From the NCBI GenBank assembly GCA_032718475.1, contig JAUCBJ010009135.1, positions 82,626-146,625 on the forward strand: DNA of 64,000 bases. The letters run 5' to 3'. Origin of the DNA: Nemertoderma westbladi (lineage: Eukaryota > Animalia > Xenacoelomorpha). Position 1 is the stretch's first letter, and every line of letters begins with the position of its first letter. Shown here piece by piece: positions 1 to 49,142 of the stretch. A program made the translations under genes and the position numbers. The notes under the pieces are model-generated. The model searched no databases and was not told the DNA's origin. It saw only the letters and a list, made by a program, of their open reading frames with translations.

Positions 1-3000
1 ACTAGCTGGTTCTGGTAGTGTAATGAAATTTTCTCTTTCACTTTCATCACTCACTAAATCTGACATTCCTATTGTTTGAATATATGTGATATACATTGTT
101 CCTGGTTTCAAAATTGAATCATCCATATTAAACATATTGGAGTAAGTCTCTTCATTACAAAGTATGGAATTGTTACAGAGTATCGTCACTAAAAACTTTT
201 TACTATGCCCATCTGGTTTGTCCCATGAGATTAAACCAGATCGAGGAGAGGGAGTATGAATTGTGGGTTTGTCAGGTGGAACTGGTTGAACTGTAAGTGT
301 ATACCATGTTTTATCACTTATAGCATTTCCATATTCATAATAATCTGCAACACAACTAATATTGATATTGTAGTCATTGCCTGGTTCCAGATTAGTTAGC
401 ACAAAGGCAGAATCTTCTTTTGGTATTTTAATATCAGGCAGCCAAATACCACTATCTATTTTACTATAACAAAGAAGCTGAAAATCATGTTTTGATTGTG
501 TTGGTATAGTCCATTTTATGGTATATTCATACCTGTTTGAATTATTACCACTTATATTGAACAGAGGGAGAGGTTTAGTTACAGCAAAAGCATTTGTGCT
601 AGAATCTAGTATGGCTTCTGTGGTAATGTAACAAGATGTAATATTTATTTTATACAAACATCCAGGAGATAAGCGTTCAAAGAGATGAGAAGTGATAACT
701 TCATCGATGGTTGACTCTTGTACATTTTCTCCATTAACTTCATCAATATTAATTTTAAAGTAACTTATTGGACATAATGGTCTCTGCCACTTGACTTCCA
801 TAGAATTTGTTGATATGTTTTCAAATACGATATCAGTTGGTGGAAGAGGCTTTGATGTAACTGATATTTTAACTGGATTTATACAAAACAAGTTCACCAA
901 ACTGTTACAAGATAAAATATTCATAAAATATGTAGTAGATGGTAGACATGCAAATTTGTGATTTGTTTCTCCTATTACAATTCTATCTAATTCAGTGGCA
1001 ATTGTTTCATCATCAGATAATTTTGATAATTCAATACAGAAATTCATATTATCATATATTCCTTTACTAGGTCTATCCCAAGTAAGATTTATTTCGCGAA
1101 TTAAATTGGCATCTACCTCTACTGCATTACAATTTCTCACAGGCAATGGAGGATATTTTAGTTCTCTGATTGTTGAAAAGGCAATATCTCCATTTGTTGC
1201 AAACGCGCCTAATCGGATAAGGTATATGTCTCCAGGTACCAGTTCATCAATACTGAAAATATATGTGACATCATTTATCATATTTGTTGATGATAATTGC
1301 ATGTCACCCCATATAGGACCACATTCCAATTCTGACAAACTTTCATATTTATATTTTCTTAATATTTGACTATCAAAGGTAATGTTGTTAATAGTGCCAT
1401 TTGATTTTGTCATGTAAGATATGATATATTTGTCTACTTCCCAATCCACAGATTCAACTTCAATTTTAATTCGGCCATCATCATTTATTAATATTGAAAA
1501 TTCCTCAATTGGTTCTGGTGGTGTAAATATTTCCAATTTATCACTATAATCACTCATCAATGATTTAAATACTGACCTTACCATCACTTCATACCTTGTA
1601 CCAGGAAGAACTTTCACCAGCATATTACTATCAAGAGCTTCCAATTCTCTGATATCATTTTCTGATGTCATTTGTACTTTATACTTATCACATTTTCCCT
1701 CTGGGATCGTCCAATTAAGTTGAACCTCTCTTGGATCATTTGTAGAGATTTCTGGAATCATTGGAATTGCTGGTGTTGTGTCGAACTTGAAGAAAATTGA
1801 TTTATCACTGACTTGTTCACCAAAGTCATACTTTGCATCATATGTATGGGAAACCTCATAGGAAATTCCTGGAGTCAAGTCTGTGACTTTCTTTTCATTT
1901 ATACATGCAGATTCAATTGTAATTTCTCTTTCTGAATTGTCAGCAATGTCACTTTTAATAATATATAATTTTTGTCCAGTAACATAACTATTCTCCAAGG
2001 GTATGTTTCTCCATTGAATTTTATAAGTTTTATATTCTTCATTAAACCCATAAATTTCTTCAAGTTTCATTGGTTGTGCTATAAATTCTTTATTAGATTC
2101 ATCAAATTTCGGAATAGCTTCTTCATTTCTCTGATAAACTGTTCTTATCCTAATGGAATAAGCAAATCCTGGCCTCAGGTTATCTATTATGTATGAAAGA
2201 TCATTGTATCGCGGTTCCTTTACTATCCATTCTTCCATGTTACAATGTGAGTGATATCTACAATAAGCAATTTCATAATAGCTCACATTACATAATGGTT
2301 TTTTCCAAGAAATGCCCATTGTATTCATTGATATATTGTCAATCTCAATACCCAATGCTTTTGCTGGGCTAGTCGTAAATTCATCTTCAATGGGCTCACT
2401 TTCTAAATTAAAATCATCATTGCAGCTAAATAATTTAATTTTGTATATGGTTGATGGTTCAGGTACAAATGTATATTTTGTATTAAATAATTTCCTGACC
2501 CTGTTATCTTGCCAGATATTATCATTGTTAATATCAATCATTATTCTCAATCTATAACTTTTACATATACCTTGTTCAGGCTTTTCCCACGTAACTGCCA
2601 CCTGCTTGCCATCTGTGGCATTTGTGTCACAGCTAACACCAAGGGAAGACATTATAGTCTTTGTTTCTTCTGTTATCGTTAAGATCCGTGGTGGCAGAGG
2701 AGGATACTCATATAATATGTTATCGCTTAATGCAGATAAGCCGGATCCTGATTTTACTTGAAGCATTAATTTATATATGTTCCCAGGCACCAGAAGCTCA
2801 TTAATATTTTGTATACTTTTGTTATCATGCGAAAACTTTGCTGACTCCAAAGTTTGCCAAGATATTTCATCCCTGCCATCTACCACAGAATCATCCGCAT
2901 TCACATCCATTTCAAATATAGATTCCTGTTTATGGAATTTCAGTTTATATTTGTTTGGACTCCAGTCTAAGTCATCCCAGACTAGATCTTTATTGGGTAA

Positions 3001-6000
3001 AACCTTAAGACCTTTTGGTGCCTCAGGGTTTGTGGTAAATTTGCAATGGGTTACATTTTGACTACATTTATCAGCTGGTCCAATAGTTTGCACTGACACA
3101 ATGTATTCAGTTCCAGGTAGAAGATTGGTTAAATATGATTCAAAGTTACATTCACAAACCTCATAATCTATTTTTCTAGCAATATTTGGTGGGTCAATAT
3201 TTTTCATGAGTGTTACATTAAAACTTGTATAATTACCCTGCAACTCAGACCAACTCCACAAAGCTGTTGCTGATCTTGCTCTAATTGACTCTGATGGAAT
3301 TTCTATACAGCGTGGGGCCTCTGGAAAAACAGAGAACTGGTGGACATCCGATTTGTCACTGTAAACTTCCGGCAGACCATCATGTGCAGCTACACGTTTA
3401 CACCAAACCTTATACTCATATCCAGGTTCCACATCAAGAGTTACAATATTTTCATTACTGGGAATTGATACTGGAACTCTGTGTTCCAATTCATCAATTC
3501 TTTGCAAATAACAAAGTTGTTTAGAGCAGAAATAATTAGACTCTGACCAAGAAATTGTGTGTTTTGAAGTCGAGCAATTATCACCATATGAATTCAATTC
3601 CTCTGGTTTTTCTGGGAAAGTTGAAAATACCAACATTTCCGAATTTTCACTGTTATATATTTTTTTGTTATAATCTTTGTTCACAATTTTGGCATATACA
3701 AATGCTTCATATTGATAACCAGGCAACAGCTTGGTTAGTAAATATGAATTATTGCCAAGACAGTCTTCTATATTATATTTCTTATTATTTATTTTCTCAG
3801 TGTATGTGACAATGTAGTGAACTTCTTCACCTGACTCTGAGTTTTCCCAAACAAGTTCAACATTTTCTGAAGTTAATGAGCCTTCAACAATATTCAATTT
3901 TACTGGCCTTTGGGGACAAGTAAAACAGTTAATTTCCTCAATTGAGCTTTTCACATATTCATTAACAATATCCATTTCTCTGTTCACTTCATTCTCAATT
4001 ATAGTTTCTGTCCAGATTCTTATTACATATTTTGTACCTGGCTTTAATTGTTTAAATTGGTGACTACTTGTTGTACTATCCAAAAATTCATCTGGTTGTT
4101 TGTCAAATTTCACAGATTTCTGATGGTTTTTAACTTGAGCAGCGCCATTCTCAGTTTTCTCCCCAATTCGCAGACCAAACCGAGAAATAAAAGTATCTTC
4201 AGGAATATCCCAAGTAATAGAAATATCATTAGCAGCTGCACTAAATGTTGGTTCCCTTACAGGTTCTGGTAACACTGTATAGTGTAGGGATATAGGGATA
4301 CTAGAAACAGAATCTCTAATATCAATGTAAGCCTGAGCCTCCAGTGTAAATGTGTATGAGTATCCTCTCTGTAAACCATTTACTGTATATTCTTCAACAT
4401 TCCCAATGTCACCAAGGACACCTGTAGGCATATTACCTTTCAATCCTTTATTAACTGGTTTGCAGTTCAAAATATATCCCTTAGTTAATATTGAGGTTGA
4501 TTTCTTCCATGTCAATATTAATGAAACTCCCTCAATTCTGCTACTGAAATCAGAAGGTTTTGCTGGCCGAGTCCAATGAATGGCCATTGTCGGATCAGAC
4601 TGAACATTTCCATTTACAGCAACGACGAAGATAGCATACCATTGTCCCTCTTCCAGTGAGCCATCTGCACCAACTTTAAATAGCTTTCCATCTAAATTAT
4701 CACTTGTGGGTTCGCTATTAACTTCTTGAAGTGTATGCTGGCAACGCTTTAAACAAATATCCAGTGTTGGAGGAATTTTACGACTAATTATCTCATGTGA
4801 AAGAGATTTAGCTAGAATGTGATACACTTCATAATGAGTAACTGATGATGATAAATCCCACTGAACGTCAATTGTTGAAACGTCATGATCACAAATTCTT
4901 ACATTTTCAGGAGGTGGAAGACGCTTTGTCATAAATGTACCTTTAAGTGCTTCAACATTTGGCTTTGTTGAGAGATTCTTACCACTGCAAGCTGTCAATT
5001 TAAAATTATATTTTCGTTTGGGGTCAAGGTTTTGAACTTTATAGGAAGTTTGTCCTTTATTTAAAACTATATTTTCAAGCTGGAGATTGGTTGAAGATTG
5101 GTGATGAAGTTGCGACTTACGAAGCTGATGTGGTGATGATTGACTGGTCCCTTGTCTCTGAAGAATGCGCCTCTTAGTAGGGGATGTTTGTAATGCAGGA
5201 TTATGAGTCTTACTAGACTGCTGAGTATTCGTTTGAATTTGATTAATTTGAGTTGAGTGGCTATGTTCTTGCTGGGAACATTCTAACATATAATGTGTAA
5301 ATTCCCCTCTGTTTGGAGGACACCACTTTAAATCAATAAAGTTTGATCCAATTGTATCTGCTTCCATACCAATTGGCTGATATGCATAAGTATGTTCAGA
5401 AAGAGAAATACAAGCCATTGAAGTTCCATTGAGAATGGAAGACACTGAGATAGTGTATTCCTTACCAGGTTCTAAACCTTCAAATGAAGCTGTATATTCA
5501 TCACTTGCATCTATTCTGCGGAATGAGTTGTGGCTATCAGGAGGTGTTAAGCTTACTTCATAAGATGTAAGCTTTGCTGATGTTTTGTTTGTTGATTTAT
5601 GTATTAAAGCTGCCTCCCATTTAACAATTATTTTTTCTTCTGTCATTTTTTCTGATAAAAATATAACATTCTGAGGAGTCCATAGAGCCTGGAACTCATC
5701 ATTAAGAAGTGTGAAAATCTTCAATGATGCTGGAATTCCACAAGATTGAGCAACTAAGTCAAGAAGAAATAGTATATCTTGGCCCTGGGTGTCATCCACA
5801 TTTTCAATATAAGTGTAATCCGTTTTGCAGATTCGCATTTGTAGCAAGCTTTTGTGTAAATGTGAACGAGCTTTGGAAAAGGTTAAAATGGACCAATCAT
5901 CACTGCAAGATATACCAAATTTTTTGTACACAGCTAATTGTCGAGAAAATGGTCGGAGATGTAATGCAAAACACCAAAATAATGAGTATAAGTTACAGAG

Positions 6001-6771
6001 GAAGTGAATCACAAGGATAAGACACAAGATTATACTTACGTAGTGGTAAAATTTGAGCTGTGTGCTGGAGCATGCGAATTGTAGATTGGTTGCACTTGGT
6101 GTTGATGCAAATGGGTTCAATGGTATGGTGCACAATGCATCGTTATCAATAGTAGTTTGATCGGCAGCAATCCAAATATTAAATCCAAAGATAGAAGATC
6201 CAAATATGATTTCAAATACACTTTTCCACACATATGCTCGGTAAATTTTACTGCTCCTCTTTAAGGATTCACTCATTTCTTTGCACTGTCTTTCCTTCAC
6301 AAACACATCTCCAGCCCTGCCTTCTTCCAATGAATTTAGTCTTCGGGTTGAATCTGCATCAGTACAGTTTAGTGATGGTTCTACAATTAAGTTATAAAAT
6401 AATTCTAGTTTATTTCGGATAGAAGACCTCTTTAAACTAAATTTATCTACGATGAGTAGAAAAAGAGATTCAATTATCATTATGTATGGAAGATATTGTG
6501 TAACAAAATTCAATAAGTCATTTTTGCATTTCCCCTTTGCATAATCCAATATACCATCGCTAATTTCAATGTTTATGTCATCTAAGTGTTCACCCGAAGG
6601 AACGCATTGCATGTCATCTGATGCAAAAAATTTACCTGCAAGCGCAATTAATGAGACAATAAAGAGACCTTTATTTGCGAAATCCTCTATTGTGTCATGT
6701 GTTGCTGTGAAGATCTTGGTGTGAGGACTCTCTTCCCATAATGAATGCGCCAATTCCTCAACAGTTGTCAT
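1..6771 (-). CDS. Pannexin/LRRC8-like 4-TM channel domain fused to a long FN3 repeat array (3' end outside window, >=2257 aa)
   Basis: Hand translation from ATG at 6771 (context ttcaccATG, in-frame stops just upstream): MTTVEELAHSLWEESPHTKIFTATHDTIEDFANKGLFIVSLIALAGKFFASDDMQCVP...YAKGKC...QYLPYIMIIESLFLLIVDKF...KLELFYNLIVE...IYRAYVWKSVFEIIFG...LCTIP...FACS...FYHYVSIILCLILVIHFLCNLYSLFW...DILFLLDLVAQ. FN3 signatures follow (KWE...FEGLEPGKEYTISV, NLDPKRKYNFKL, SWDKPDG...LKPGTMY). All sampled blocks down to base 1 are stop-free, and the ORF track lists no minus-strand fragments here, as expected for one open frame with no stop inside the window. Confidence 0.88.
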   Translation of the reverse strand, partial: MTTVEELAHSLWEESPHTKIFTATHDTIEDFANKGLFIVSLIALAGKFFASDDMQCVPSGEHLDDINIEISDGILDYAKGKCKNDLLNFVTQYLPYIMIIESLFLLIVDKFSLKRSSIRNKLELFYNLIVEPSLNCTDADSTRRLNSLEEGRAGDVFVKERQCKEMSESLKRSSKIYRAYVWKSVFEIIFGSSIFGFNIWIAADQTTIDNDALCTIPLNPFASTPSATNLQFACSSTQLKFYHYVSIILCLILVIHFLCNLYSLFWCFALHLRPFSRQLAVYKKFGISCSDDWSILTFSKARSHLHKSLLQMRICKTDYTYIENVDDTQGQDILFLLDLVAQSCGIPASLKIFTLLNDEFQALWTPQNVIFLSEKMTEEKIIVKWEAALIHKSTNKTSAKLTSYEVSLTPPDSHNSFRRIDASDEYTASFEGLEPGKEYTISVSSILNGTSMACISLSEHTYAYQPIGMEADTIGSNFIDLKWCPPNRGEFTHYMLECSQQEHSHSTQINQIQTNTQQSSKTHNPALQTSPTKRRILQRQGTSQSSPHQLRKSQLHHQSSTNLQLENIVLNKGQTSYKVQNLDPKRKYNFKLTACSGKNLSTKPNVEALKGTFMTKRLPPPENVRICDHDVSTIDVQWDLSSSVTHYEVYHILAKSLSHEIISRKIPPTLDICLKRCQHTLQEVNSEPTSDNLDGKLFKVGADGSLEEGQWYAIFVVAVNGNVQSDPTMAIHWTRPAKPSDFSSRIEGVSLILTWKKSTSILTKGYILNCKPVNKGLKGNMPTGVLGDIGNVEEYTVNGLQRGYSYTFTLEAQAYIDIRDSVSSIPISLHYTVLPEPVREPTFSAAANDISITWDIPEDTFISRFGLRIGEKTENGAAQVKNHQKSVKFDKQPDEFLDSTTSSHQFKQLKPGTKYVIRIWTETIIENEVNREMDIVNEYVKSSIEEINCFTCPQRPVKLNIVEGSLTSENVELVWENSESGEEVHYIVTYTEKINNKKYNIEDCLGNNSYLLTKLLPGYQYEAFVYAKIVNKDYNKKIYNSENSEMLVFSTFPEKPEELNSYGDNCSTSKHTISWSESNYFCSKQLCYLQRIDELEHRVPVSIPSNENIVTLDVEPGYEYKVWCKRVAAHDGLPEVYSDKSDVHQFSVFPEAPRCIEIPSESIRARSATALWSWSELQGNYTSFNVTLMKNIDPPNIARKIDYEVCECNFESYLTNLLPGTEYIVSVQTIGPADKCSQNVTHCKFTTNPEAPKGLKVLPNKDLVWDDLDWSPNKYKLKFHKQESIFEMDVNADDSVVDGRDEISWQTLESAKFSHDNKSIQNINELLVPGNIYKLMLQVKSGSGLSALSDNILYEYPPLPPRILTITEETKTIMSSLGVSCDTNATDGKQVAVTWEKPEQGICKSYRLRIMIDINNDNIWQDNRVRKLFNTKYTFVPEPSTIYKIKLFSCNDDFNLESEPIEDEFTTSPAKALGIEIDNISMNTMGISWKKPLCNVSYYEIAYCRYHSHCNMEEWIVKEPRYNDLSYIIDNLRPGFAYSIRIRTVYQRNEEAIPKFDESNKEFIAQPMKLEEIYGFNEEYKTYKIQWRNIPLENSYVTGQKLYIIKSDIADNSEREITIESACINEKKVTDLTPGISYEVSHTYDAKYDFGEQVSDKSIFFKFDTTPAIPMIPEISTNDPREVQLNWTIPEGKCDKYKVQMTSENDIRELEALDSNMLVKVLPGTRYEVMVRSVFKSLMSDYSDKLEIFTPPEPIEEFSILINDDGRIKIEVESVDWEVDKYIISYMTKSNGTINNITFDSQILRKYKYESLSELECGPIWGDMQLSSTNMINDVTYIFSIDELVPGDIYLIRLGAFATNGDIAFSTIRELKYPPLPVRNCNAVEVDANLIREINLTWDRPSKGIYDNMNFCIELSKLSDDETIATELDRIVIGETNHKFACLPSTTYFMNILSCNSLVNLFCINPVKISVTSKPLPPTDIVFENISTNSMEVKWQRPLCPISYFKINIDEVNGENVQESTIDEVITSHLFERLSPGCLYKINITSCYITTEAILDSSTNAFAVTKPLPLFNISGNNSNRYEYTIKWTIPTQSKHDFQLLCYSKIDSGIWLPDIKIPKEDSAFVLTNLEPGNDYNINISCVADYYEYGNAISDKTWYTLTVQPVPPDKPTIHTPSPRSGLISWDKPDGHSKKFLVTILCNNSILCNEETYSNMFNMDDSILKPGTMYITYIQTIGMSDLVSDESERENFITLPEPAS
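5677..6771 (-). other. Pannexin/innexin/LRRC8-type transmembrane domain (aa ~1-365)
   Basis: Four hydrophobic segments and two Cys in each predicted extracellular loop (C56, C82, C214, C234). Colinear motif matches to LRRC8A as recalled: MIPVTEL~MTTVEEL, KYFPYLVLLHTLIFL~QYLPYIMIIESLFLL, KLEHFVSIL~KLELFYNLI, VYRLYMRQTIIKVI~IYRAYVWKSVFEII, DFAFMLHLIDQ~DILFLLDLVAQ. Confidence 0.8.
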
Positions 6772-8039: not shown

Positions 8040-10890
8040 TAAAACGTAATTACAGTATAAACAGTAAATAATTAATAAACTAATAACTTACTTTATGACT
8101 ATTGTACCTATTTTTACATTTTTACATTTAACTGCAGATTTAAAAGAATGTTGATTATTTAGGTTTTTAATTTCATTAGGCAGAGCGTTCCAATTTTTAA
8201 TGCGGTTAAAAAAGAAAGTATCAGATTCAAAGGATTTACAATTCGGGAGGTAGAAGTTTGAAGCACTAGCTCTGGTACTGTAAGAGTGTGTATCGCGTAC
8301 CCTGTTGAATTTTTGTTTTAGGTAATTGGGACATTTACCATTATACACTTTATGCACATGGTTAAGGCGTAGCTGCTTAACTCTACTATCTAAGTTAAGT
8401 AGTCCAGATTCAGATAAGTCATCTGGAGTTAGGTGGTGCCTAGGTTTGTAGTCTTTAATAAATCGTACTACTTTATTCTGAGCTACTTGTAATTTACATT
8501 TAAGCTGTTTGGTTAAGCCTTCATACCAAGAAGAGCATGCATAGTCCATGTGACACTGTATTAACGAAGAGCAAAGTAACTTGCGGGAGTCGGTGTTTAA
8601 ACTATTTTTATTTCTGTATAGAAACCTAAGCCTACTGTTAACTTTCGAAAAAATATTTTTCACTGTACTTTCTCCTGACAAGCAGTTATCCAATGTGGCG
8701 CCTAAATATTTAACTTCCTTTTTATTTTCAATCTTATGTCCATTACTAGTGACTTCGAACTTAGTTACCTTCTTTAACTTTCTTTTGGAACCAAACAAAA
8801 TACTTTCATTCTTACCGTAGTGAATGGATAGCTTATTATCAACCAACCACTCATTACAGGATTCTAGAACTGCACTTAACTTTTGGGAAATATGGATAGG
8901 ATCTTTATGAGAGAAAATAAGAGCACTGTCGTCGGCATATAAAATGAGTTTAAAATCGGGATCTATACTACTTATCATATCATTTACATAGCATACAAAA
9001 AGCAGAGGACCTAATATACTACCTTGCGGTACACCACAGGTAATCTCTTGTACAGTAGACTGCGATTTGCTAATGACTACAGTTTGACCTCTGTCTGACA
9101 GGTAGGACTTGAACCAGTCTATAGAACCTACACCCATCAGGCCTAACTTACCAAGCAGAATTTCATGATCTACAGTATAGAAAGCCTTTTGTAGGTCCAA
9201 CATTACCATACCAGTATATAAACCCTTTGCGTTATTACATCTAATTGTATCAGTTAAGTTAATACGGCAGGTGTCTGTAGAATATGATTTACGAAAACTG
9301 AAGTTTATTGATCAGATTTAGCCTACTAAGATGTGCCTCCAGCTGTAGAAAAACAGAACGTTCTAGAATTTTAGATACAATACTTAAGATACTAACAGGT
9401 CTGTAATTACAGGGTTCTACTTTACTATTCTTTTTATACAGAGGAACAACCTTAGCTAATTTCAGTTCGTCTGTTACTACATTATCTACGATAGAGTAAT
9501 TAATAATAAAAGTAATAGGCACTTTAAGTACTTCAGCACCATCCTTAAGAAAACGGGCAGGTATTAGGTCTAGACCGGTACTTTTTGAGGCTGATAGGCT
9601 AAGTAGATTTTTAAAAACGAAATCCTCAGAAACGGGTTTTAAAAATAACTTTTCTGAATTTTGTAACTTTTCTAAATAAAAATTATTTAGAGTTTCGGAC
9701 CCTATACTATATTTATTACTTGATAACGGTAACTTCTTAACTAAATTTGAGGCAACATTAGTAAAATAATTATTAAATAAATTACTAACTAGAGTATGAT
9801 CATGAATCAGCTCACCGTTATCTTGCAGAACAATATTCGATTTAGATTTAAGGTTTTTATAACCTAAAGATTTTAGGGTAGACCATAGACTTTTAGGATT
9901 ATCTTTATTCTCACTTATTTTGTTGTACAAATATTCAGATTTAGCTTTTTTTATTTCCCGTTGGACAAGGTTTCTATATTTGCAGTAATTAATATAATCA
10001 GCTAAAACACAGTATTTCCTAAATTTATACAAATAGTTATCTCTTTCTCTGATATTACTAAGAATACCCGAGGTCATCCAGGGCTCAGTGCGTTGTTTAA
10101 GACTAATTTCTTTAATTGGTGCTACAGTATTAAGTGCCTTTAGAAATATATCTTTAAAAACAGTGTACGCAAGGTTAATGTCAGCGGCCTTAAAACAGGG
10201 TTCCCAGTCAGAATTAACTAACAAACTTAAAAAGCGTCCCTTGCTGTAATTTTTCATAGACCTAACAGTTACTGTTTTATGATCCCCGAAAAAAAGATTT
10301 TTGGGTCTTTCTTGTGCAGAAAACTATAAAATGATCGCTTAGACCTATAGGTAAAACCCCAGATTGAGAAATAATATCGGTATTATTCCAAAGGATGTGA
10401 TCTAGTAAAGTAGAAGTTTTACTGGTAGTTCTGGTAGAATCTCGAATAATTTGTTTTAAATCAAAAAATTTAAAATACTTTGGTACTGTTTACAGATGGG
10501 GGATGCTTTGTGATGGTAACAGATATTAAAATCACCTAAGAAATATATTTTACAGTCTGACCTAAGATTACATAAAATTGTATTTTCAAAATTTTGCAAA
10601 AAATCTGATTGTTTAGGGGGCCGATATAAAGTACCGATTAAAATAGGTTTAGTTTTAGGAAGTAAAAGTTCCACCAGTAAAACTTCGTCACAAGTCTCTA
10701 AATCTTCCCTACGATTAAAAGCTAAATCACATCGAATGTAAGTACAGACACCACCACCGTGTCTGTCCCTATCCCTACGTAAACCCACGTAATTATCAAT
10801 ATAAATTTCTCCATCAGAAACGCTATCATCGAGCCAAGTTTCAGAGATTGTTAAAACTGCTGGGTTGGATTTATTGATTAAAATAATTGG
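8040..10890 (-). mobile_element. Non-LTR retrotransposon (L2/CR1-group LINE), ORF2 endonuclease + reverse transcriptase, frameshifted
   Basis: Colinear ORF pieces: 10456..10788 (APE endonuclease: GGGVCTYIR, YRPP, LGDFN), 9289..10257 (PWMT, KSTGLDLIP, NYRPVSIL) and 8088..9209 ([33 protein letters not shown]). Boundaries approximate. Confidence 0.9.
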
Positions 10891-12092
10891 TTAAGTTTTT
10901 GGTGAATAATTTAACCTCAAATCATCGTCGATTCATTACTGTACTGCACTGTAACAGAAGGATGTACTGACAGGGATATTACTACACGTGTTGCTATGGT
11001 GACCAATGAGATTTTAAATACTTGGTGTGGTTCTGTGGTTGTCTTCAACAGGCCCAAATATATGGGTGACCTCAGTTTGTGTTCGCACATGCGCTGCTAC
11101 ACTTCCCGCTCTACCAGGCCCCCTCCACGAGCCAATGGATGCAGTTCTTCGCGGATCTCTAACGCTTTCAAGATGTGGAAAGGCTTAACTTCAAAACCTA
11201 TGGACTTCAGGTATTGGATGGTTGCGAAACAAGCGGCTATACAGGCTGCCACCACAATAATTGCACAATTGTGATTCTGCAGACATTAATTAACTTCTTC
11301 GTGAGGTCTACCTAATGCGGAATAAGGAATAGTGTCTACTTTCAAATATCGGTATCAAATATTAAAAGTGCGGTATCATGTAAAAATAAGTGCTGTATCA
11401 AGTAAATGCCGGATTATGTTAAAATAAATGCTGTACCAAATGAGTACTGTATATTCTTATTTGGTATTTTTCTCATTTAGTTATGAAGAAATAATCACAC
11501 TGGGACTTACTGCTGTAACTGGTACTACTGTACTACTGCTTCTACTGGTACTACTGCTGCCTGTACTACTGGTGTGGACTTACTGCTGCTACTAAACTGT
11601 ACTACGACGAATGGAAATGAGGTCCTTCCAGGCTTCCTGATTCTCAACCCCGTGGTTGTCGCAATTTTGATTCTCCCAGAGTAGACTTGTGTAACAACCA
11701 AACAGCCTTGAAGATGAGGACAATTTCGAAAAAGTTATGGGAGTTAGGGAGTAGTGGTGTAATTCAGGCATAGCATTCTAAATGCACGCTGCATTATGAC
11801 ATGCCAATTGTGGACTGCATGGAGTGGTTAATCAGTCGGTTTCAGGGTGTCTGCAGGTCCAATTTCCTGATGGTATCAATTTTTAATAGAGCTACCCATG
11901 CCTTTGCTTTCCTAACTTATCATATAAACCGGTAGGCCAATACCAGTGGTTGCATCGTAATAAGTTAACTAGTTACCAAATAATGTCAATAAGTTAAATG
12001 TTCGAGGTCTTACCTGACGGGAAGAACAAAAAGTGATGTTAGTGAACGAACGAAAAATCCAATTCCACCAATTCAAAAAGGTTCTATTATTG

Positions 12093-12409
12093 TCATTAGG
12101 TCCTAATAACGTGTTAGAGATACGCCCAAAAAACAGGTTAGTAAAATACACATAGTTTATTTAAGAGTATGAGTAATATGTATTTTATTAATTCGATTGT
12201 TATGACAAAAGGCGATAACGAAATAGTACTCATGTATGCGTTTAGGTTAGGTATAATGTACAGTACAGTACACAATTACAAAACCTAAAATTTTAAAGTC
12301 CAACATTAACCGAAATTATTGTAGTGGGATTATACGTTATGACAGAAGGCAATAACGAATCGTACATGTGCATATCTCTTATTGATAACACGTTATTAGG
12401 ACCTAATGA
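12093..12409. mobile_element. MITE-like element with 24-bp perfect terminal inverted repeats
   Basis: tcattaggtcctaataacgtgtta (12093-12116) is the exact reverse complement of taacacgttattaggacctaatga (12386-12409). AT-rich non-coding interior with an internal direct repeat (ttatgacaaaaggcgataacgaa / ttatgacagaaggcaataacgaa). Confidence 0.7.
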
Positions 12410-16995: not shown

Positions 16996-17132
16996 CGCCT
17001 TCATTTCCTGTAGTACTATATTGGTTTTGTAGTGATTGGTATTGCTATTGTTATATTATTATTACAATATTGGTATTGTCTGATAGTATAATCTGATGAT
17101 ACTGCTGTACTGTGCAGATTTCGCTTTTGATA

Positions 17133-19703: not shown

Positions 19704-19802
19704 CACAACACATTTTATAATTCTTTGTTCAATTTGTTCGGAAGATTTATTAGCAAGGGTATTTATTATTCTGAACACCAAATATACCAAATGTGTACCA
19801 AA

Positions 19803-19958
19803 AGTGTACCAAATATTAATTCACTTAAAATTATTCTGAACACTAGTGTACCAAATATTAATTCACTTAAAATTATTCTGAACACTAGTGTACCAAATAT
19901 CAATTCACTTAAAATTATTCTGAACACTAGTGTACCAAATATCAATTCACTTAAAATT
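19803..19958. repeat. Short tandem repeat, 42-bp unit, ~3.7 copies
   Basis: agtgtaccaaatat(t/c)aattcacttaaaattattctgaacact repeated. Confidence 0.9.
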
Positions 19959-36000: not shown

Positions 36001-39000
36001 TCATTTATCCTGTACTACTGTATTAGCACTGTGGTGGTTGGAAGAGAGGTTCATTTATCCTGTACTACTGTATTAGCACTGTGGTGGTTGGAAGAGAGGT
36101 TCATTTATCCTGTGCTACTGTATTAGCACTTTGGTGGTTGGAAGAGAGGTTCATTTATCCTGTACTACTGTATTAGCACTGTGGTGGTTGGAAGAGAGGT
36201 TCATTTATCCTGTACTACTGTATTAGCACTGTGGTGGTTGGAAGAGAGGTTCATTCATCCTGTACAACTGTATTAGCACTGTGGTGGTTGGAAGAGAGGT
36301 TCATTTATCCTGTGCTACTGTATTAGCACTGTGGTGGTTGGAAGAGAGGTTCATTTATCCTGTACTACTGTATTAGCACTGTGGTGGTTGGAAGAGAGGT
36401 TCATTTATCCTGTACTACGTATTAACACTGTGGTGGTTGGAAGAGAGGTTCATTTATCCTGTAGTACTGTATTAGCACTGTGGTGGTTGGAAGAGAGGTT
36501 CATTTATCCTGTACTACTGTATTAGCACTGTGGTGGTTGGAAGAGAGGTTCATTTATCCTGTACTACTGTATTAGCACTGTGGTGGTTGGAAGAGAGGTT
36601 CATTTATCCTGTACTACAGTACGTATTAGCACTGTGGTGGTTGGAAGAGAGGTTCATTTATCCTGTACTACTGTATTAGCACTGTGGTGGTTGGAAGAGA
36701 GGTTCATTTATCCTGTACTACTGTATTAGCACTGTGGTGGTTGGAAGAGAGGTTCATTTATCCTGTACTACTGTATTAGCACTGTGGTGGTTGGAAGAGA
36801 GGTTAATTTATCCTGTACTACTGTATTAGCACTGTGGTGGTTGGAAGAGAGGTTAATTTATCCTGTACTACTGTATTAGCACTGTGGTGGTTGGAAGAGA
36901 GGTTCATTTATCCTGTACTACTGTATTAGCACTGTGGTGGTTGGAAGAGAGGTTCATTTATCCTGTACTACTGTATTAGCACTGTGGTGGTTGGAAGAGA
37001 GGTTAATTTATCCTGTACTACTGTATTAGCACTGTGGTGGTTGGAAGAGAGGTTCATTTATCCTGTACTACTGTATTAGCACTGTGGTGGTTGGAAGAGA
37101 GGTTCATTTATCCGCTGTACTACTGTATTAGCACTGTGATGGTTGGAAGAGAGGTTCATTTATCCTGTACTACTGTATTAGCACTGTGGTGGTTGGAAGA
37201 GAGGTTCATTTATCCTGTACTACTGTATTAGCACTGTGGTGGTTGGAAGAGAGGTTCATTTATCCTGTACTACTGTATTAACACTGTGGTGGTTGGAAGA
37301 GAGGTTCATTTATCCTGTACTACTGTATTAACACTGTGGTGGTTGGAAGAGAGGTTCATTTATCCTGTACTACTGTATTAGCACTGTGGTGGTTGGAAGA
37401 GAGGTTCATTTATCCTGTACTACTGTATTAGCACTGTGGTGGTTGGAAGAGAGGTTCATTTATCCTGTACTACTGTATTAACACTGTGGTGGTTGGAAGA
37501 GAGGTGCATTTATCCTGTACTACTGTATTAGCAATGTGGTGGTTGGAAGAGAGGTTCATTTATCCTGTACTACTGTATTAGCACTGTGGTGGTTGGAAGA
37601 GAGGTTCATTTATCCTGTACTACTGTATTAGCACTGTGGTGGTTGGAAGAGAGGTTCATTTATCCTGTGCTACTGTATTAGCACTTTGGTGGTTGGAAGA
37701 GAGGTTCATTTATCCTGTACTACTGTATTAGCACTGTGGTGGTTGGAAGAGAGGTTCATTTATCCTGTACTACTGTATTAGCACTGTGGTGGTTGGAAGA
37801 GAGGTTCATTCATCCTGTACAACTGTATTAGCACTGTGGTGGTTGGAAGAGAGGTTCATTTATCCTGTGCTACTGTATTAGCACTGTGGTGGTTGGAAGA
37901 GAGGTTCATTTATCCGCTGTACTGCTGTATTAGCACTGTGGTGGTTGGAAGAGAGGTTCATTTATCCTGTACTACTGTATTAGCACGGTGGTGGTTGGAA
38001 GAGAGGTTCATTTATCCTGTAGTACTGTATTAGCACTGTGGTGGTTGGAAGAGAGGTTCATTTATCCTGTACTACTGTATTAGCACTGTGGTGGTTGGAA
38101 GAGAGGTTCATTTATCCTGTACTACTGTATTAGCACTGTGGTGGTTGGAAGAGAGGTTCATTTATCCTGTACTACTGTATTAACACTGTGGTGGTTGGAA
38201 GAGAGGTTCATTTATCCTGTACTACTGTATTAGCACTGTGGTGGTTGGAAGAGAGGTTCATTTATCCTGTACTACTGTATTAGCACTGTGGTGGTTGGAA
38301 GAGAGGTTCATTTATCCTGTACTACTGTATTAGCACTGTGGTGGTTGGAAGAGAGGTTCATTTATCCTGTACTACTGTATTAGCACTGTGGTGGTTGGAA
38401 GAGAGGTTCATTTATCCTGTACTACTGTATTAGCACTGTGGTGGTTGGAAGAGAGGTTCATTTATCCTGTACTACTGTATTAGCACTGTGGTGGTTGGAA
38501 GAGAGGTTCATTTATCCTGTACTACTGTATTAGCACTGTGGTGGTTGGAAGAGAGGTTCATTTATCCTGTACTACTGTATTAGCACTGTGGTGGTTGGAA
38601 GAGAGGTTCATTTATCCTGTACTACTGTATTAGCACTGTGGTGGTTGGAAGAGAGGTTCATTTATCCTGTACTACTGTATTAGCACTGTGGTGGTTGGAA
38701 GAGAGGTTCATTTATCCTGTACTACTGTATTAGCACTGTGGTGGTTGGAAGAGAGGTTCATTTATCCTGTACTACTGTATTAGCACTGTGGTGGTTGGAA
38801 GAGAGGTTCATTTATCCTGTACTACTGTATTAGCACTGTGGTGGTTGGAAGAGAGGTTCATTTATCCTGTACTACTGTATTAGCACTGTGGTGGTTGGAA
38901 GAGAGGTTCATTTATCCTGTACTACTGTATTAGCACTGTGGTGGTTGGAAGAGAGGTTCATTTATCCTGTACTACTGTATTAGCACTGTGGTGGTTGGAA

Positions 39001-41632
39001 GAGAGGTTCATTTATCCTGTACTACTGTATTAGCACTGTGGTGGTTGGAAGAGAGGTTCATTTATCCTGTACTACTGTATTAGCACTGTGGTGGTTGGAA
39101 GAGAGGTTCATTTATCCTGTACTACTGTATTAGCACTGTGGTGGTTGGAAGAGAGGTTCATTTATCCTGTACTACTGTATTAGCACTGTGGTGGTTGGAA
39201 GAGAGGTTCATTTATCCTGTACTACTGTATTAGCACTGTGGTGGTTGGAAGAGAGGTTCATTTATCCTGTACTACTGTATTAGCACTGTGGTGGTTGGAA
39301 GAGAGGTTCATTTATCCTGTACTACTGTATTAGCACTGTGGTGGTTGGAAGAGAGGTTCATTCATCCTGTACTACTGTATTAGCACTGTGGTGGTTGGAA
39401 GAGAGGTTCATTTATCCTGTACTACTGTATTAGCACTGTGGTGGTTGGAAGAGAGGTTCATTTATCCTGTACTACTGTATTAGCACTGTGGTGGTTGGAA
39501 GAGAGGTTCATTTATCCTGTACTACTGTATTAGCACTGTGGTGGTTGGAAGAGAGGTTCATTTATCCTGTACTACTGTATTAGCACTGTGGTGGTTGGAA
39601 GAGAGGTTCATTTATCCTGTACTACTGTATTAGCACTGTGGTGGTTGGAAGAGAGGTTCATTTATCCTGTACTACTGTATTAGCACTGTGGTGGTTGGAA
39701 GAGAGGTTCATTTATCCTGTACTACTGTATTAGCACTGTGGTGGTTGGAAGAGAGGTTCATTTATCCTGTACTACTGTATTAGCACTGTGGTGGTTGGAA
39801 GAGAGGTTCATTTATCCTGTACTACTGTATTAGCACTGTGGTGGTTGGAAGAGAGGTTCATTTATCCTGTACTACTGTATTAGCACTGTGGTGGTTGGAA
39901 GAGAGGTTCATTTATCCTGTACTACTGTATTAGCACTGTGGTGGTTGGAAGAGAGGTTCATTTATCCTGTACTACTGTATTAGCACTGTGGTGGTTGGAA
40001 GAGAGGTTCATTTATCCTGTACTACTGTATTAGCACTGTGGTGGTTGGAAGAGAGGTTCATTTATCCTGTACTACTGTATTAGCACTGTGGTGGTTGGAA
40101 GAGAGGTTCATTTATCCTGTACTACTGTATTAGCACTGTGGTGGTTGGAAGAGAGGTTAATTTATCCTGTACTACTGTATTAGCACTGTGGTGGTTGGAA
40201 GAGAGGTTCATTTATCCTGTACTACTGTATTAGCACTGTGGTGGTTGGAAGAGAGGTTAATTTATCCTGTACTACTGTATTAGCACTGTGGTGGTTGGAA
40301 GAGAGGTTCATTTATCCTGTACTACTGTATTAGCACTGTGGTGGTTGGAAGAGAGGTTCATTTATCCTGTACTACTGTATTAGCACTGTGGTGGTTGGAA
40401 GAGAGGTTCATTTATCCTGTACTACTGTATTAGCACTGTGGTGGTTGGAAGAGAGGTTCATTTATCCTGTACTACTGTATTAGCACTGTGGTGGTTGGAA
40501 GAGAGGTTCATTTATCCTGTACTACTGTATTAGCACTGTGGTGGTTGGAAGAGAGGTTCATTTATCCTGTACTACTGTATTAGCACTGTGGTGGTTGGAA
40601 GAGAGGTTCATTTATCCTGTACTACTGTATTAGCACTGTGGTGGTTGGAAGAGAGGTTCATTTATCCTGTACTACTGTATTAGCACTGTGGTGGTTGGAA
40701 GAGAGGTTCATTTATCCTGTACTACTGTATTAGCACTGTGGTGGTTGGAAGAGAGGTTCATTTATCCTNNNNNNNNNNNNNNNNNNNNNNNNNNNNNNNN
40801 NNNNNNNNNNNNNNNNNNNNNNNNNNNNNNNNNNNNNNNNNNNNNNNNNNNNNNNNNNNNNNNNNNNNTACTGTATTAGCACTGTGGTGGTTGGAAGAGA
40901 GGTTCATTTATCCTGTACTACTGTATTAGCACTGTGATAGTTGGAAGAGAGGTTCATTTATCCTGTACTACTGTATTAGCACTGTGGTGGTTGGAAGAAA
41001 GGTTCATTTATACTGTACTACTGTATTAACACTGGTGGTTGGAAGAGAGGTTCATTTATCCTGTACTACTGTATTAACACTGTGGTGGTTGGAAGAGAGG
41101 TTCATTTATCCTGTACTACTGTATTAGCACTGTGGTGGTTGGAAGAGAGGTTCATTTATCCCGTACTACTGTATTAGCACTGTGGTGGTTGGAAGAGAGG
41201 TTCATTTATCCTGTACTACTGTATTAGCACTGTGATAGTTGGAAGAGAGGTTCATTTATCCTGTACTACTGTATTAGCACTGTGATAGTTGGAAGAGAGG
41301 TTCATTTATCCTGTACTACTGTATTAGCACTGTGGTGGTTGGAAGAGAGGTTCATTTATCCTGTACTACTGTATTAGCACTGTGGTGCTTGGAAGAGAGG
41401 TTAATTTATCCTGTACTACTGTATTAGCACTGTGGTGGTTGGAAGAGAGGTTCATTTATCCTGTACTACTGTATTAGCACTGTGGTGGTTGGAAGAGAGG
41501 TTCATTTATCCTGTACTACTGTATTAGCACTGTGGTGCTTGGAAGAGAGGTTAATTTATCCTGTACTACTGTATTAGCACTGTGGTTGTTGGAAGAGAGG
41601 TTCATTTATCCTATACTACTGTATTAGCACTG
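21007..41632. repeat. Satellite array, 50-bp unit, ~410 copies (20.6 kb as assembled) with higher-order blocks
   Basis: Unit gaagagaggttcatttatcctgtactactgtattagcactgtggtggttg; variant-rich flanks and a homogeneous core at ~38200-40768; interrupted by an N gap. Confidence 0.99.
40769..40868. other. Assembly gap (100 N) inside the 50-bp satellite
   Basis: Run of exactly 100 n, a typical placeholder of unknown true length; the same satellite in the same orientation lies on both sides. Confidence 0.98.
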
Positions 41633-41708
41633 GCGGTGCAATTTTGTCGATAAGCCGGCACAGCATTCTTAAAAATGCAGCTGCAATGCAGCATGCCGAT
41701 CATAGTAG
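41633..41708 (+). mobile_element. Extremely 5'-truncated RTE (family A) insertion, 3' end only, with target-site duplication
   Basis: gcggtgcaattttgtcgataagccggcacagcattcttaaaaatgcagctgcaatgcagcatgccgatcatagtag matches 50942-51017 and the reverse complement of ~53848-53925; flanked by the direct repeat tactgtattagcactg (41617-41632 and 41709-41724). Confidence 0.88.
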
Positions 41709-41741
41709 TACTGTATTAGCACTGTGGTGGTTGGAGGAGAG

Positions 41742-42322
41742 GCAACGAGGCACAAGAGGAGGACGAGTATTGTGGGTAAGACTTTTGACTAACGGCAGAC
41801 AACTCGTTAATGGTACCCATATGCTAAAGGCATTGCTCACTTCATGCTGCGCGAAGACCCCACGAACGTTTAATCATATCATGTACGTACACCGATGATT
41901 TGGTGCTAATTTTACCATCTACAGTACAAAAGGTATGCAATTTTTGTTGAACAGATGTACTATATTCGGTAACAGCATCGATGTTTCGATGTCGTTATTT
42001 AATGCTAAAAAAAGTGCAACACTAATAGTCCGATCGCGTACTCAGTCAAAATGGGCATTTCCTAATTTTAAAATCAGTAACATGATTATTCCAGTAAAAG
42101 AGGCAATTAAATATCTTGGGCATATTATTACTGACACTATCAGATGACAAAGATATAGTAGACAATGTAGAAAGCTCTATTCGCAAGGTAATACAAGTTC
42201 GTGGGGTCTTCGCGCAGCACAAAGTGAGCAAAGCCTTTAGCATATGGGCACCATTAACGAGTTGTCTGCCGTTAGTCAGAAGTCTTCAACACAATACTCG
42301 TCCTCCCCTTGTGCCTCGTTGC
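41742..42322. repeat. ~126-bp inverted repeat arms (41742-41867 / 42197-42322) enclosing a LINE RT fragment
   Basis: Arms are imperfect reverse complements (gcaacgaggcacaag...gcgcgaagaccccacgaac / gttcgtggggtcttcgcgc...cttgtgcctcgttgc). The interior encodes degenerate YTDDLVLI..MQFLLNRC..FNAKKS..IKYLGHII. Confidence 0.85.
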
Positions 42323-42677
42323 GTTCGTTCGTTTTTAACGAAACTTCAGATTCTTTCTAAACTTTTGCCGGACTACATACGTACCAGGTTTCGTTTAATT
42401 TCATCAAGGAATAACCGAGTTATTAGCGTTCAAAAATTTACGACGACGACAGACGACGATGACAGACGATGACGACGACGACAGACAACTCGCCAATGGC
42501 ACCCATATGCTAAGGCTTCGCTCACTTTCTGGCTCGCCCCACAGTAGGTAATGCGACATAGGCCCACCATATGCCACCCGATCTGCGATCCACTATGCGC
42601 CGGTTTTATAGTAGGTACCTTCCACTAGTAGGTAGTAGGTGATGGGGCATGAATGTAAAATAACATTACAATCTATA

Positions 42678-43170
42678 ACACTACTACTGTACTACTACTA
42701 GGTCGAGTGTGCTCGGACAGTGGAAATGAGATCCTTCCAGGCGTCCCGATTCTACTACTGTACTACTACTAGGTCGAGCGAGCTCGGACAGTGGAAATGA
42801 GATCCTTCCAGGCGTCCCGATTCTACTACTGTACTACTACTAGGTCGAGCGAGCTCGGACAGTGGAAATGAGATCCTTCCAGGCTTCCCGATTCTCCAAC
42901 TACTACTAGGTCGAGCGAACTCGGACAGTGGAAATGAGATCCTTCCAGGCTTCCCGATTCTCCAATTACTACTACTAGGTCGAGCGAACTCGGACAGTGG
43001 AAATGAGATCCTTCCAGGCGTCCCGATTCTACTACTGTACTACTACTAGGTCGAGCGAGCTCGGACAGTGGAAATGAGATCCTTCCAGGCTTCCCGATTC
43101 TCCAACTACTACTAGGTCGAGCGAACTCGGACAGTGGAAATGAGATCCTTCCTGGCTTCCCGATTCTCCA
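42678..43170. repeat. Tandem array of ~62-69-bp units (~7 copies), probably the core of a non-autonomous element
   Basis: Unit actactactaggtcgagcga(g/a)ctcggacagtggaaatgagatccttccaggc(g/t)tcccgattct. Flanked by (gac)n/(gaca)n/(gacg)n microsatellites at ~42440 and ~43280. Single diverged copies of the core occur at ~11605-11650 (+) and ~52270-52305 (-). Confidence 0.85.
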
Positions 43171-44318: not shown

Positions 44319-47300
44319 CTAGACTGATATAAATGTGAAATCACTGTCTGAGTCTCCAAGTCCTTCTATCACAGATGATGACATCCCTGATTGTACATAT
44401 AGCCTCATTGTTGATATGCAGACATTAATCGCTGCATATTTCTTTGTTGTTTGTTTTATTAGAATTAACTTATTATATGGACTCTCCGATTTGAATATTT
44501 TGTAATAGCTAACATCACATTCTGGTTTATCCCATCTCAAAACTAATTTACCTTGTGGGAACTCCATGTGCTCTATTGTTAAATTGGATGGCTTTAGTGG
44601 CTTTGCAATAAATTGAATGAAAGTCTTTCTGCTAAACTTATCAAGAAACTTGTTGTATGCACATATATTTATAGTGTATACGTGTGAGGGAGCAGTTATG
44701 AATGTGACATGGTTACATTCAATATCAACAACACTTTTTACTTTTGTTTTGGTAGTAAAGCAGTAAATTTCTGCAGTATTATTCACTTGTGAAGATTCGC
44801 CAGTCGGTTTCGCTTGTTGCCAAATGATTTTAGCATTTTGTGTAATACCACCATCATTAGAGTATTCCTCAACCACAGCGTTATAAGGACGCTTTATTTC
44901 TCGTGCAAATCGAATTGTATCTGTATAGGCAATTTCATCTCCATTACTATTCCCAAATCGAACCTCATATACAGTTTCATAGTCATCGAAGTAACTTTCA
45001 AGATTTCTGGTTTCACATCCATTAGTTGCAATAGGTACAGGGCTTATAGTTTTCCATTCCAACTCCCCCTGAGAACGGTACTGTAATATGTATTCAACAA
45101 CTGCCCACGTCGATTTTTTCCATTTTGCAAACACTTTTCCATCTACTTCTATAATTTCAAAATTATCAGGTTGACCGGGCTTTGTAATAAATTCAAGTGT
45201 TACCGCTCTGCCTTTTACATCATTTTCACCGACAGGAATTAATTTAGCTGTATATTTAGTACCTGGTTGAAGGTTTGTTAATGAATATGACTTACAAGGG
45301 AATATGATATATTCGTTGGTTCTCTCGTCAATGATTTCTATATTTACCCCTTTGTAATACCCAGTATTATATTCCCATTGAATGACACAAGATTCCTTGG
45401 TAAGGTCACAGACATAAACATTATCTACAGGAGCAGGCGGAAGGGTAAGCATCTTATTAACATGCTGCCCTTCTTTCATATTATCTTCTGCATGCCAAGC
45501 CAAGCACGAAACACCAACCTTATAACAGTAACCAGGTTCAATTTGTGATAAATTTATTCTGCATTTATTTTCTGTATCTTCCAGTTGAAGAGTTTGTGAC
45601 AGTGGTTCTTCATGAAGCTTACTAACATAGACATTAAAGTGAGAATAATATGAATTCCGATCATTTGGCTTCCGCCATTCTAACTCAATTACTTTTGATG
45701 CAATAAATCTGAGTTGTAGCTCTTTAGGGATTGGTGGTTCTTCGATAAACTCAAAGTCACAATAATTTTTCTTTACATATGTTTTTCCAGTTATGCTATT
45801 AGTTCTATATACCGTCTCAACTCGATATATTGATAGAATTCCACGTGCGGCGTCATTGTAAGTAAATGTTGTTGTATCACTGGATAACCTTGAAGCTGTA
45901 GAAATTATTTGTAAATTTTCACCCTTAGATCCATGATAGATATTATAGTACGATATTTGACAATCTGGAGTGATCCACTTCAAATTTGTTTTTAATGTTC
46001 CATTAGTTGAACTAAATTTTAAATCTTTTACAGGCAGTGGTGAAGACAAGGCTATATGTTCTAAACCTTGACTGAATGCCCCTGATGAACTCACAGAAAA
46101 CACTACCAGCTTGTATAATGTTGATGGTATAACATTTAATTCATATGTTGGATCTGATGTGATTATGTTTTCTGATATTTTCTGATATTCTTTCCCATTT
46201 ATATGTAATCTGAAAACATCGATGCTGTAATGATCACATAATCCCTTAGTTGGTTTCTCCCAGGTAAATGTTATACTTTTATTTTCAGGTTGTGACGAAA
46301 TATTAGTCATCTCAGATATATTACAAGGTGGATTAGGGTTGCAATCAACATGCATGATATCCGAATATTCTATATTACCATATTGAGACAGTGCTCCTAC
46401 ACTTATATCATAAGAGCTACCAGGTGTCAAATATTTATACAATTCTAAATTATGGATTCTTGTTGTAGAGATATCTTTTTTATTTTCTGTACCATCCTCT
46501 GTTATATATTTAAATATGTAGTTTTTAACTTTCCATTTCTGTTGTTTCAACTGGAGAATATTATTTTCAATTCTTATTATTGGGGCAGATGCATTGGTAT
46601 TAAATTCAACATTATTACTTTTGTCACTTTCTTTGTTATATTCTCCAACTGTCGTCATGTATAATATATACTGAGTTCCTGGAGATAAATCATCTATTAT
46701 AAAATATTTAGAGTTCACATTATCAATATTTATATTAATTAATTTAATATTTTGTGATTCTTTTTCTTTAAAATATATATAAACTCCAAGAACCATTGAA
46801 TCGCTATACTCCCACGATATTCTACATGATGTTGCTGAGATATTATCAACAATGATGTTTAAAGGACATATTGATTTCAGATAAAAGGTTCCAACAACTG
46901 AATGTTCACTTTCAACTTCATCCATACCTCTGTATTTTGAGATACTTGTTACAAACCACTTGTATATTAGTCCTGGTCTTAGATCATCTAATGAATATTT
47001 ACTAGGGTATTGTTTTTCTGCATATAGAACCACTAATGGGAAGAATGCGGACATGCTACCTGGTTTAACACAAATCATTTGATGGGTAAACATTCCCTTT
47101 GAAAGAGTCCATGTTAAGTCATAGCTATGAGTATCACATATTACTTGCTGGCTATTTAATTGAGGTTTACATGGTTTGGTTACAACCCTTTGTACAACTC
47201 TGTTAGTCAATATTTCTCTACTTCCAGAATCAAATGCTGATATTGATATTCCATACAATATTCCTGGATTTAAACCCTCTATAGTGTATTCCTTAGTTCC

Positions 47301-49136: not shown

Positions 49137-49142
49137 TGCTTG

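Follow-up and report, generated by a model that had tools for sequence, protein, structure and literature searches.

The stretch of DNA analysed here, referred to as the window, comprises 64,000 nucleotides of the xenacoelomorph Nemertoderma westbladi (assembly GCA_032718475.1, contig JAUCBJ010009135.1, positions 82,626 to 146,625 of the forward strand). Two long genes, which we designated gene A and gene B, lie 37.5 kb apart in repeat-rich DNA; both, with all of the domains described for them below, are on the minus strand. Gene A (1..6771) is an uninterrupted open reading frame (ORF) of at least 2257 amino acids (aa) that remains open at the left window edge and encodes an LRRC8-like pore domain followed by at least 18 FN3 domains. 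Gene B (44319..49136) is an uninterrupted ORF of 1605 aa plus a TAG stop codon, and encodes a caspase-like domain and a WD40 propeller followed by 11 FN3 domains. A gap of 100 N (40769-40868) is located between the two genes within a 50-bp satellite array, and their adjacency therefore depends on the scaffold. Comparison of the two FN3 arrays indicated that both almost certainly descend from one shared block of five domains.

The arrays were split by hand into 29 FN3 domains, 18 in gene A (A1-A18) and 11 in gene B (B1-B11). An earlier sequence-only reading had described an ordered series of atypical FN3 motifs in both proteins. All 15 of the motifs it quoted were found in the two ORFs, at most 2 bases from where it had placed them (WKKPLC.. 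at 2307, WQRPLC.. at 789, WITPDC.. at 45977 and WDKPEC.. at 44534), and the periods it gave, 506 aa in gene A (1995-1489) and 481 aa in gene B (1535-1054), are exact. The series was said to occur twice in each protein; the series itself holds, but the count does not, as A7-A18 amount to 2.4 copies up to the window edge and B1-B11 to 2.2. In gene A, the super-repeat copies are A7-A11 (2074..3615), with position classes 4, 5, 1, 2 and 3, A12-A16 (574..2073), and the start of a third copy that stops at the window edge (A17, A18 and the first 5 residues of A19; 1..573). In gene B, copies B2-B6 (45738..47174) and B7-B11 (44322..45737) are preceded by B1 (47175..47465), which is in register with class 3 as its best class (21.6 bits with the gene A class-3 profile versus 0.4-5.8 with the other four). 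The last domain, B11 (44322-44600), keeps the class-3 N-terminal motif, and its C-terminal half aligns poorly; it may be degenerate.

Domain pairs were scored by Smith-Waterman alignment and the means compared by offset. Within gene A the mean at offset 5 was 56.3, compared to 27.8-41.4 at the others, of which offset 10 was the highest, and within gene B it was 48.3 compared to 23.5-33.5 elsewhere. Between the genes, peaks were observed at offsets 5, 10 and 15 (57.2, 54.9 and 66.3, respectively), and offsets 13, 16, 0, 8 and 9 reached 41.6-46.8. A scan of periods 2-9 gave an excess for 5 only (48.5 versus 34.2). Cross-gene pairs in the same position averaged 49.9 (40 pairs) and those in other positions 35.2 (158 pairs), a result equalled in 0 of 20,000 permutations. 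The best match lay in a domain's own position for 21 of the 24 domains A6-A18 and B1-B11, and for 22 of 29 overall; A1-A5 did not follow the register (p = 0.10), and A6 did not match the class expected of it.

Because the register had been picked with the data in view, a less circular test was made in which each set of profiles drew on the domains of one gene only, with 172 control FN3 domains (fibronectin, collagen XII, PTPRB, PTPRJ, tenascins and copepod-type tails) used for normalisation. These profiles placed 9 of 10 gene B domains and 11 of 12 gene A domains correctly (20/22; chance 1 in 5; binomial p = 1.6e-12). Position labels also clustered in a domain tree of 92 rows made by quick search, from which 9 of 19 tenascin-X domains were left out, with 6 changes compared to a shuffled mean of 15.0 and 0 of 200 shuffles as low. 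Thus, as the sequence-only reading had expected of an all-vs-all comparison and tree, domains i and i+5 and their cross-gene equivalents group by super-repeat position. Of the opposite pattern, grouping by gene or with unrelated FN3 proteins, part was seen: position labels prevail for the domains, but unrelated FN3 domains are equally close for half of them.

Relatives carrying the block were sought in several collections. A protein search returned 7 hits, all generic FN3 proteins, and the best 120 of 302 matches were 119 tenascins and one PTPRJ. Atlas rows were generic with low recognition, and 0 of 27 metagenome candidates carried the block. On 358 other proteins, the class-1 and class-2 profiles reached at most 15.9 and 11.8 bits, and a six-frame scan of the window gave no FN3, pore or class matches beyond genes A and B. 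No RNA run was among the public runs listed, which says nothing about expression.

The descent of the block was assessed from the four complete copies (A7-11, A12-16, B2-6 and B7-11) over 420 gap-free columns. The two gene A copies were 28.8% identical, and the five remaining pairs 20.5-23.3%. The topology that groups blocks by gene was the best of the quartet. The collinear topology, in which B1-B11 would derive from A6-A16 as a one-step copy, was rejected (approximately unbiased (AU) test, p 0.011 under two models). At the DNA level, the longest match between genes A and B was 38 bp, with no usable similarity. Because whole blocks group best by gene, one shared block appears to have been duplicated or homogenised in each gene, and we infer that internal duplication or homogenisation, at least in gene A, followed the split. 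The low block identity and the lack of usable DNA similarity indicate that the visible arrays either split long ago or evolve fast, as far as sequence can tell. The proposal of the sequence-only reading that one ancestral multi-domain block lies behind different effectors is thus upheld, with domains clustering by position, a distinct A1, A2 tail and a quartet that resolves by gene.

A part of the gene B array occurs in a second context. This shared tract of 2067 bases (44920..46986; aa 717-1406 of gene B, approximately seven FN3 domains) has different flanks in public contigs, and both of its break points fall inside FN3 domains. Contigs from four public DNA runs (at most three samples, with X1 and X3 from one sample) were aligned to 44100-49400; runs X1, X2 and X3 cover gene B in 30 of 30 bins, and X5, which covers 6 of 30, was not used. 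In X1, X2 and X3 alike, contigs stop at 44920/44949 and 46957 and overlap by 30 bases, the pattern of a branching assembly graph, and loose ends continue for at least 255 letters at 46986 (X2, X3) and 44920 (X3). The 30-base flanks at both ends are stop-free only in the gene B frame, a short test of ten codons each. Depth in the tract compared to the caspase side was 58-70 versus 26 in X2, 52-64 versus 34 in X1 and 205-233 versus 88 in X3, approximately twofold, although contig depth is not copy number.

Differences from the window were also tallied in the tract and on the caspase side. In X2, one contig over 45966-46986 carried 34 in 1021 positions and the caspase-side contig 0 in 2164; the counts were 38/1414 versus 20/2092 in X3, and 10/1346 and 8/402 versus 1 in approximately 2220 in X1. 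The tract accounts for 33 of the best-supported 40 differences (184 in total): 20 are non-synonymous and 13 synonymous, and none creates a stop; the resulting pN/pS of 0.40 gives no positive selection and comes from 33 rows of the 184 differences. Depth over the caspase region was flat at 80% likeness, and a more distant copy of the array, of approximately 78% identity, was present in pieces in X1, X2 and X3.

These results suggest that a near-identical seven-domain tract probably resides in a separate gene. Since depth in the caspase region is flat at 80% likeness, the N-terminus of this partner seems to be different or distant; the partner could be the continuation of gene A past the window edge. 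Copies are alike within a run yet different between samples, which we take as signs of gene conversion between them. Instead of a second gene, the second context could represent a divergent allele, because depth does not measure copy number, one sample gave both X1 and X3, and the best run is possibly the window's own source. The sequence-only reading had described an old relationship and not a recent copy. That description fits the visible arrays, which are 20-23% identical, but fails for the 2.07-kb gene B tract with its near-identical second context. Immediately upstream of gene B, at 49233-49400, lies a high-depth repeat with many loose contig ends in all four DNA runs.

The N-terminal region of gene A (5683..6771, aa 1-363) encodes a four-transmembrane pore domain of the LRRC8/pannexin type. 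It matched Pfam PF12534 at 25.4 bits (cut-off 25) and LRRC8A, LRRC8C and LRRC8D in PDB, with 15-17% identity to LRRC8. A model of the pore built from 51 aligned sequences had a predicted local distance difference test (pLDDT) score of 84, and every listed Foldseek row was an LRRC8 (best E 2e-10). LRRC8 proteins, which form VRAC, an anion channel regulated by volume, have four extracellular-loop cysteines. Gene A residues C56, C82, C214 and C234 fall in two loops of the pore model, and C214 and C234 are near-invariant across the 51 aligned rows. Because the model resembles LRRC8 structures, the C-terminus of gene A is predicted to lie on the cytosolic side. Gene A likely works like an LRRC8 pore, with channel activity predicted. 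No LRR family was present among the nine Pfam matches of its visible part; FN3 domains follow the pore instead. Sequons, observed versus expected, numbered 19 versus 14.2 in the gene A array and 10 versus 11.6 in that of gene B, with no excess, compared to 30 versus 14.2 in the PTPRB control.

Relatives of gene A were identified by searching its first 460 residues against 1.84 billion representatives. This search yielded 115 hits, of which 95 match the pore domain (longest 816 aa), 35 carry tail domains of the family and 7 carry all five. Two relatives among the 20 hits looked up were named to organism, and both are copepod: Tigriopus californicus (P0075) and Caligus rogercresseyi (P0076/P0200), each with automatic annotation only. 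In a 41-row tree, gene A formed a long branch outside the clade that holds the copepod sequences. Domains A1 and A2 (4924..5682) correspond by position to the first two tail domains of this copepod-type pore plus five-FN3 family, with scores of 45.9 and 47.4 bits compared to control maxima of 12.6 and 30.0. A2 (4924-5385) contains a Gln/Ser/His-rich insert of approximately 60 aa within the FN3 domain, and relatives have a variable insert at the equivalent site. Matches of A3-A5 to tail domains 3-5 were weak or out of order, and a tail of exactly five FN3 domains was not found; A3-A6 (3616..4923) lie outside the five-domain register and have no firm family assignment.

These results indicate, on sequence grounds, that gene A belongs to a wider family of LRRC8-type pores with five FN3 domains. 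Because A1 and A2 match the family tail and no class maps on tail domain 1, the super-repeat is an addition behind that tail. Duplication of the five-FN3 tail as a whole was considered as its source and rejected, no class matching tail domain 1. In the whole-tail test the five cyclic registers scored 173-188, and of 120 arbitrary assignments 35 did at least as well as the best. One partial register of tail and super-repeat came out of a single hhalign run at 91%, which was not specific. The family in which five FN3 domains replace the LRRs comprises P0075, P0076/P0200, P0087 and relatives, with loci L001, L005, L009 and L011, and a second clade of these LRRC8-type pores is mostly without FN3 matches. 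Several of 20 metagenome loci appear divided into exons, and, apart from generic class-4/5 scores, no block or caspase match in the 20 reached 12 bits.

Gene B begins with a caspase-like (Peptidase_C14) domain (48507..49091), identified by Pfam (E 2.2e-20) and by alignments to caspase-8 and caspase-9. Residues His96 and Cys140 align with the caspase His-Cys dyad (caspase-8). The motif of gene B is EACQG, with Glu138 where caspases have Gln (QACxG), and His32 occupies the place of the caspase-9 loop L1 Arg preceding GS, with an Arg one residue earlier. The small-subunit stretch, which would hold the third S1 residue (Arg on loop L5), had no PDB match, and a single-sequence model of gene B gave a pLDDT of 30. 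Caspases bind the P1 Asp through Arg, Gln and Arg, and MALT1 is acidic at similar positions (PMC4357240). Because two S1 residues (His32, Glu138) are altered, the caspase-like domain of gene B is probably not Asp-specific; protease activity is predicted.

Downstream of the caspase-like domain, a WD40 beta-propeller (47466..48281) was identified by Pfam; it shares 24% identity over 215 aa with an APAF-1, a generic level of similarity. Neither NACHT nor NB-ARC was among the nine families matched by gene A or the best 25 of the 29 matched by gene B, and the domain map of gene B leaves no room for either. No CARD was found in the gene B ORF, nor a Pfam death-fold match in 20 flanking ORFs, and the N-terminus of gene B is without a strong hydrophobic segment. 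A T-rich stretch at 49137-49176 ends in AG, as in a splice acceptor, 6 bases before the gene B ATG. An upstream exon could add an untranslated region or a prodomain to gene B. No caspase plus FN3 relative was among the matches listed (64 hits), in which the caspase-WD40 search was swamped by WD40 proteins, and a caspase-WD40 query in Atlas returned only rows of 0.80-0.81.

We tentatively favour, at slightly short of even confidence, the explanation that the shared block is a lineage-specific, exchangeable FN3 module that would serve as a cytosolic sensor or clustering device to switch on the attached effector. A single acquisition of the five-domain block would have been followed by its duplication or homogenisation in both genes. 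The block may move through in-frame recombination inside coding sequence, because both arrays are single open frames and the tract breaks inside FN3 domains at both ends. The second context would be a separate gene whose copies are kept alike by gene conversion. In the cytosol, the block is predicted to bind a repetitive ligand and to cluster or pull on its effector. For gene A, several long FN3 rods under an oligomeric pore would gate the channel, and for gene B, proximity-driven pairing would promote dimerisation of the caspase-like domain. A role in defence or cell death is predicted, as suggested by multi-copy status, recent exchange and two types of effector. Precedents exist: amphioxus has repeat-caspase fusions (PMC2575513), invertebrate connexin-like channels fused to NLR/NACHT, TIR or caspase domains still conduct (10.64898/2026.06.13.731801), and binders of the LRRC8 cytosolic domain alter gating (PMC12182595). 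A broader form of this proposal, which we regard as speculative and somewhat unlikely, holds that these are mix-and-match cytosolic FN3 receptors: a five-domain module, exchanged by gene conversion, would arm LRRC8-type channels, non-Asp caspase-like proteases and perhaps further effectors, giving an NLR-like defence repertoire with FN3 in place of LRR and without an NTPase switch.

Several observations, in addition to the limits given above for depth, pN/pS and allelism, weigh against the sensor-module explanation. The cross-gene partner in the same position outranks all 172 controls in just 11 of 22 domains. The domain tree is weak (90 columns, 4 of 89 branches starred, long-branch warnings), and one crossed topology of the block quartet was not rejected (AU 0.129). 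The searches found no block-bearing relative outside Nemertoderma westbladi DNA. No NACHT or NB-ARC switch was found, and the caspase domain, without two canonical S1 residues, may have no apoptotic caspase function. Sequons were not in excess in the fibronectin control either, making that test of topology a weak one. Ligand, location and activity are, for both proteins, predictions.

An alternative that we consider rather unlikely is that the shared architecture is a by-product of local duplication, in which a caspase-WD40 exon was fused in frame to a piece of a duplicated FN3-array gene, each protein being selected for its own purpose with no shared mechanism. The two genes lie on the same strand 37.5 kb apart in repeat-rich DNA, the visible arrays are just 20-23% identical, gene conversion between neighbours requires no selection, and no caspase plus FN3 relative was among the 64 hits listed. 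However, the five-position order survives approximately 78% sequence turnover in both genes and in at least four copies, which neutral decay of independent domains would not require, and neither frame is interrupted over its 4.8 or 6.8 kb. Common ancestry and uninterrupted frames show selection on each ORF but no functional coupling, and the selectively retained relationship between the two genes proposed by the sequence-only reading goes further than this.

The arrays might also form a mechanical ruler or tether, as in the titin A-band, with the period matching a filament and the rod anchoring or pulling the channel (gating by swelling or stretch) and holding the protease there. Positional conservation of FN3 super-repeats marks filament binding in titin (PMC10665226), and LRRC8 cytosolic domains have been proposed as mechanosensors (PMC12182595). 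We consider this quite improbable, as it leaves several array-bearing sequences, recent exchange and tract differences of 1-3% between samples unexplained, and no Ig-domain match passed in Pfam. A dedicated pair, in which the arrays bind each other and the protease is brought to the channel and opens it by cleavage, appears more doubtful still. Caspase cleavage opens Panx1 (PMC7806264), the two genes are neighbours, and gene A has three DxxD-small motifs in its FN3 domains (aa 691, 817 and 2184). Yet these motifs are not near the pore, gene B lacks Arg and Gln at two positions of the aspartate pocket (as defined in PMC4357240), the adjacency spans an assembly gap and other sequences bear the same block. 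Finally, it is highly improbable that the five-domain period arose by chance among generic FN3 domains or through faulty assembly: identities are low and unrelated FN3 domains are as close as the cross-gene partner for half of the domains, but the permutations and cross-gene profiles largely refute it, the period scan argues against it, no internal DNA repeat exceeds 49 bp and gene B is covered in 30 of 30 bins in three runs.

Both genes were compared with known systems. Like LRRC8/VRAC (PF12534), gene A has a four-transmembrane pannexin-like pore, behind which a long repeat domain lies on the side predicted to be cytosolic; unlike LRRC8, it carries an FN3 array in place of LRRs, at 15-17% identity and a length of at least 2257 aa. 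LRRC8 subunits form hexamers or heptamers that carry a swelling-activated anion current. It shares with the copepod-type pore plus five-FN3 proteins the pore, a helical segment after the fourth transmembrane segment and FN3 domains 1-2, including the long insert of domain 2, whereas those relatives end at five FN3 domains (at most 816 aa among 95) and lack the super-repeat. As in the super-repeats of the titin A-band (PMC10665226), an FN3 domain resembles those at its own position in the period more than it resembles its neighbours, but here the period is five, FN3 domains only are involved, and the module is common to two unrelated effector genes rather than to one filament protein. The amphioxus LRR-caspase and TNFR-caspase proteins and the invertebrate connexin-like fusions similarly join a repeat or receptor module to a caspase or large-pore channel and are lineage-specific and multi-copy; in contrast, the shared module here is an FN3 super-repeat, the pore is of the LRRC8 type and NACHT is absent. 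The amphioxus caspases keep QACXG, compared to EACQG in gene B. The WD40 propeller in a caspase-related context recalls APAF-1 and STAND-WD40 proteins, but gene B is without NB-ARC/NACHT and CARD and has the protease in the same chain. Because one defining feature fails for each, the sequences indicate that neither gene is an LRRC8, an NLR or a canonical caspase.

FN3 super-repeats, and the shuffling of repeat modules onto immune effectors, are already known. Proteins joining a pore or a caspase to FN3 domains were not found in the literature by title and abstract, a search that left most subscription papers outside its scope, and such FN3 fusions could be listed in the supplements of 10.64898/2026.06.13.731801. 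The two genes show that a repeat module other than LRR, WD40, TPR or ankyrin can be common to a predicted large-pore channel and a caspase-like protease, and this module appears to be undergoing present-day exchange between genes. Should it act as a sensor, it would represent a new repertoire of invertebrate intracellular receptors. Whatever the function, gene A and the copepod proteins related to it are predicted LRRC8-type pores with FN3 in place of LRR, despite a 2019 review that reported no identification of Lrrc8 genes in invertebrates (PMC6363415). Such pores would be natural swaps for probing the cytosolic domain in gating, and bear on the origin of LRRC8.

The spacer between the two genes (8091..43170, no strand) contains a LINE (long interspersed nuclear element) fragment, satellites and the 100-N gap. 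The 50-bp satellite is present in approximately 410 copies at 21007-41632, and further satellites have units of 59 bp (12453-14937), 68 bp (16271-16996), 45 bp (17133-19703) and 71 bp (42681-43167). LINE reverse-transcriptase/endonuclease fragments lie on the minus strand at 8091-10890 and 53915-55885, the former ending approximately 1.3 kb upstream of the gene A ATG. The right end of the window (58514-64000, minus strand) is occupied by the coding region of a Pao/BEL-type long terminal repeat retrotransposon, in which DUF1759, protease, reverse transcriptase, Peptidase_A17, integrase and DUF5641 domains are spread over several frames.

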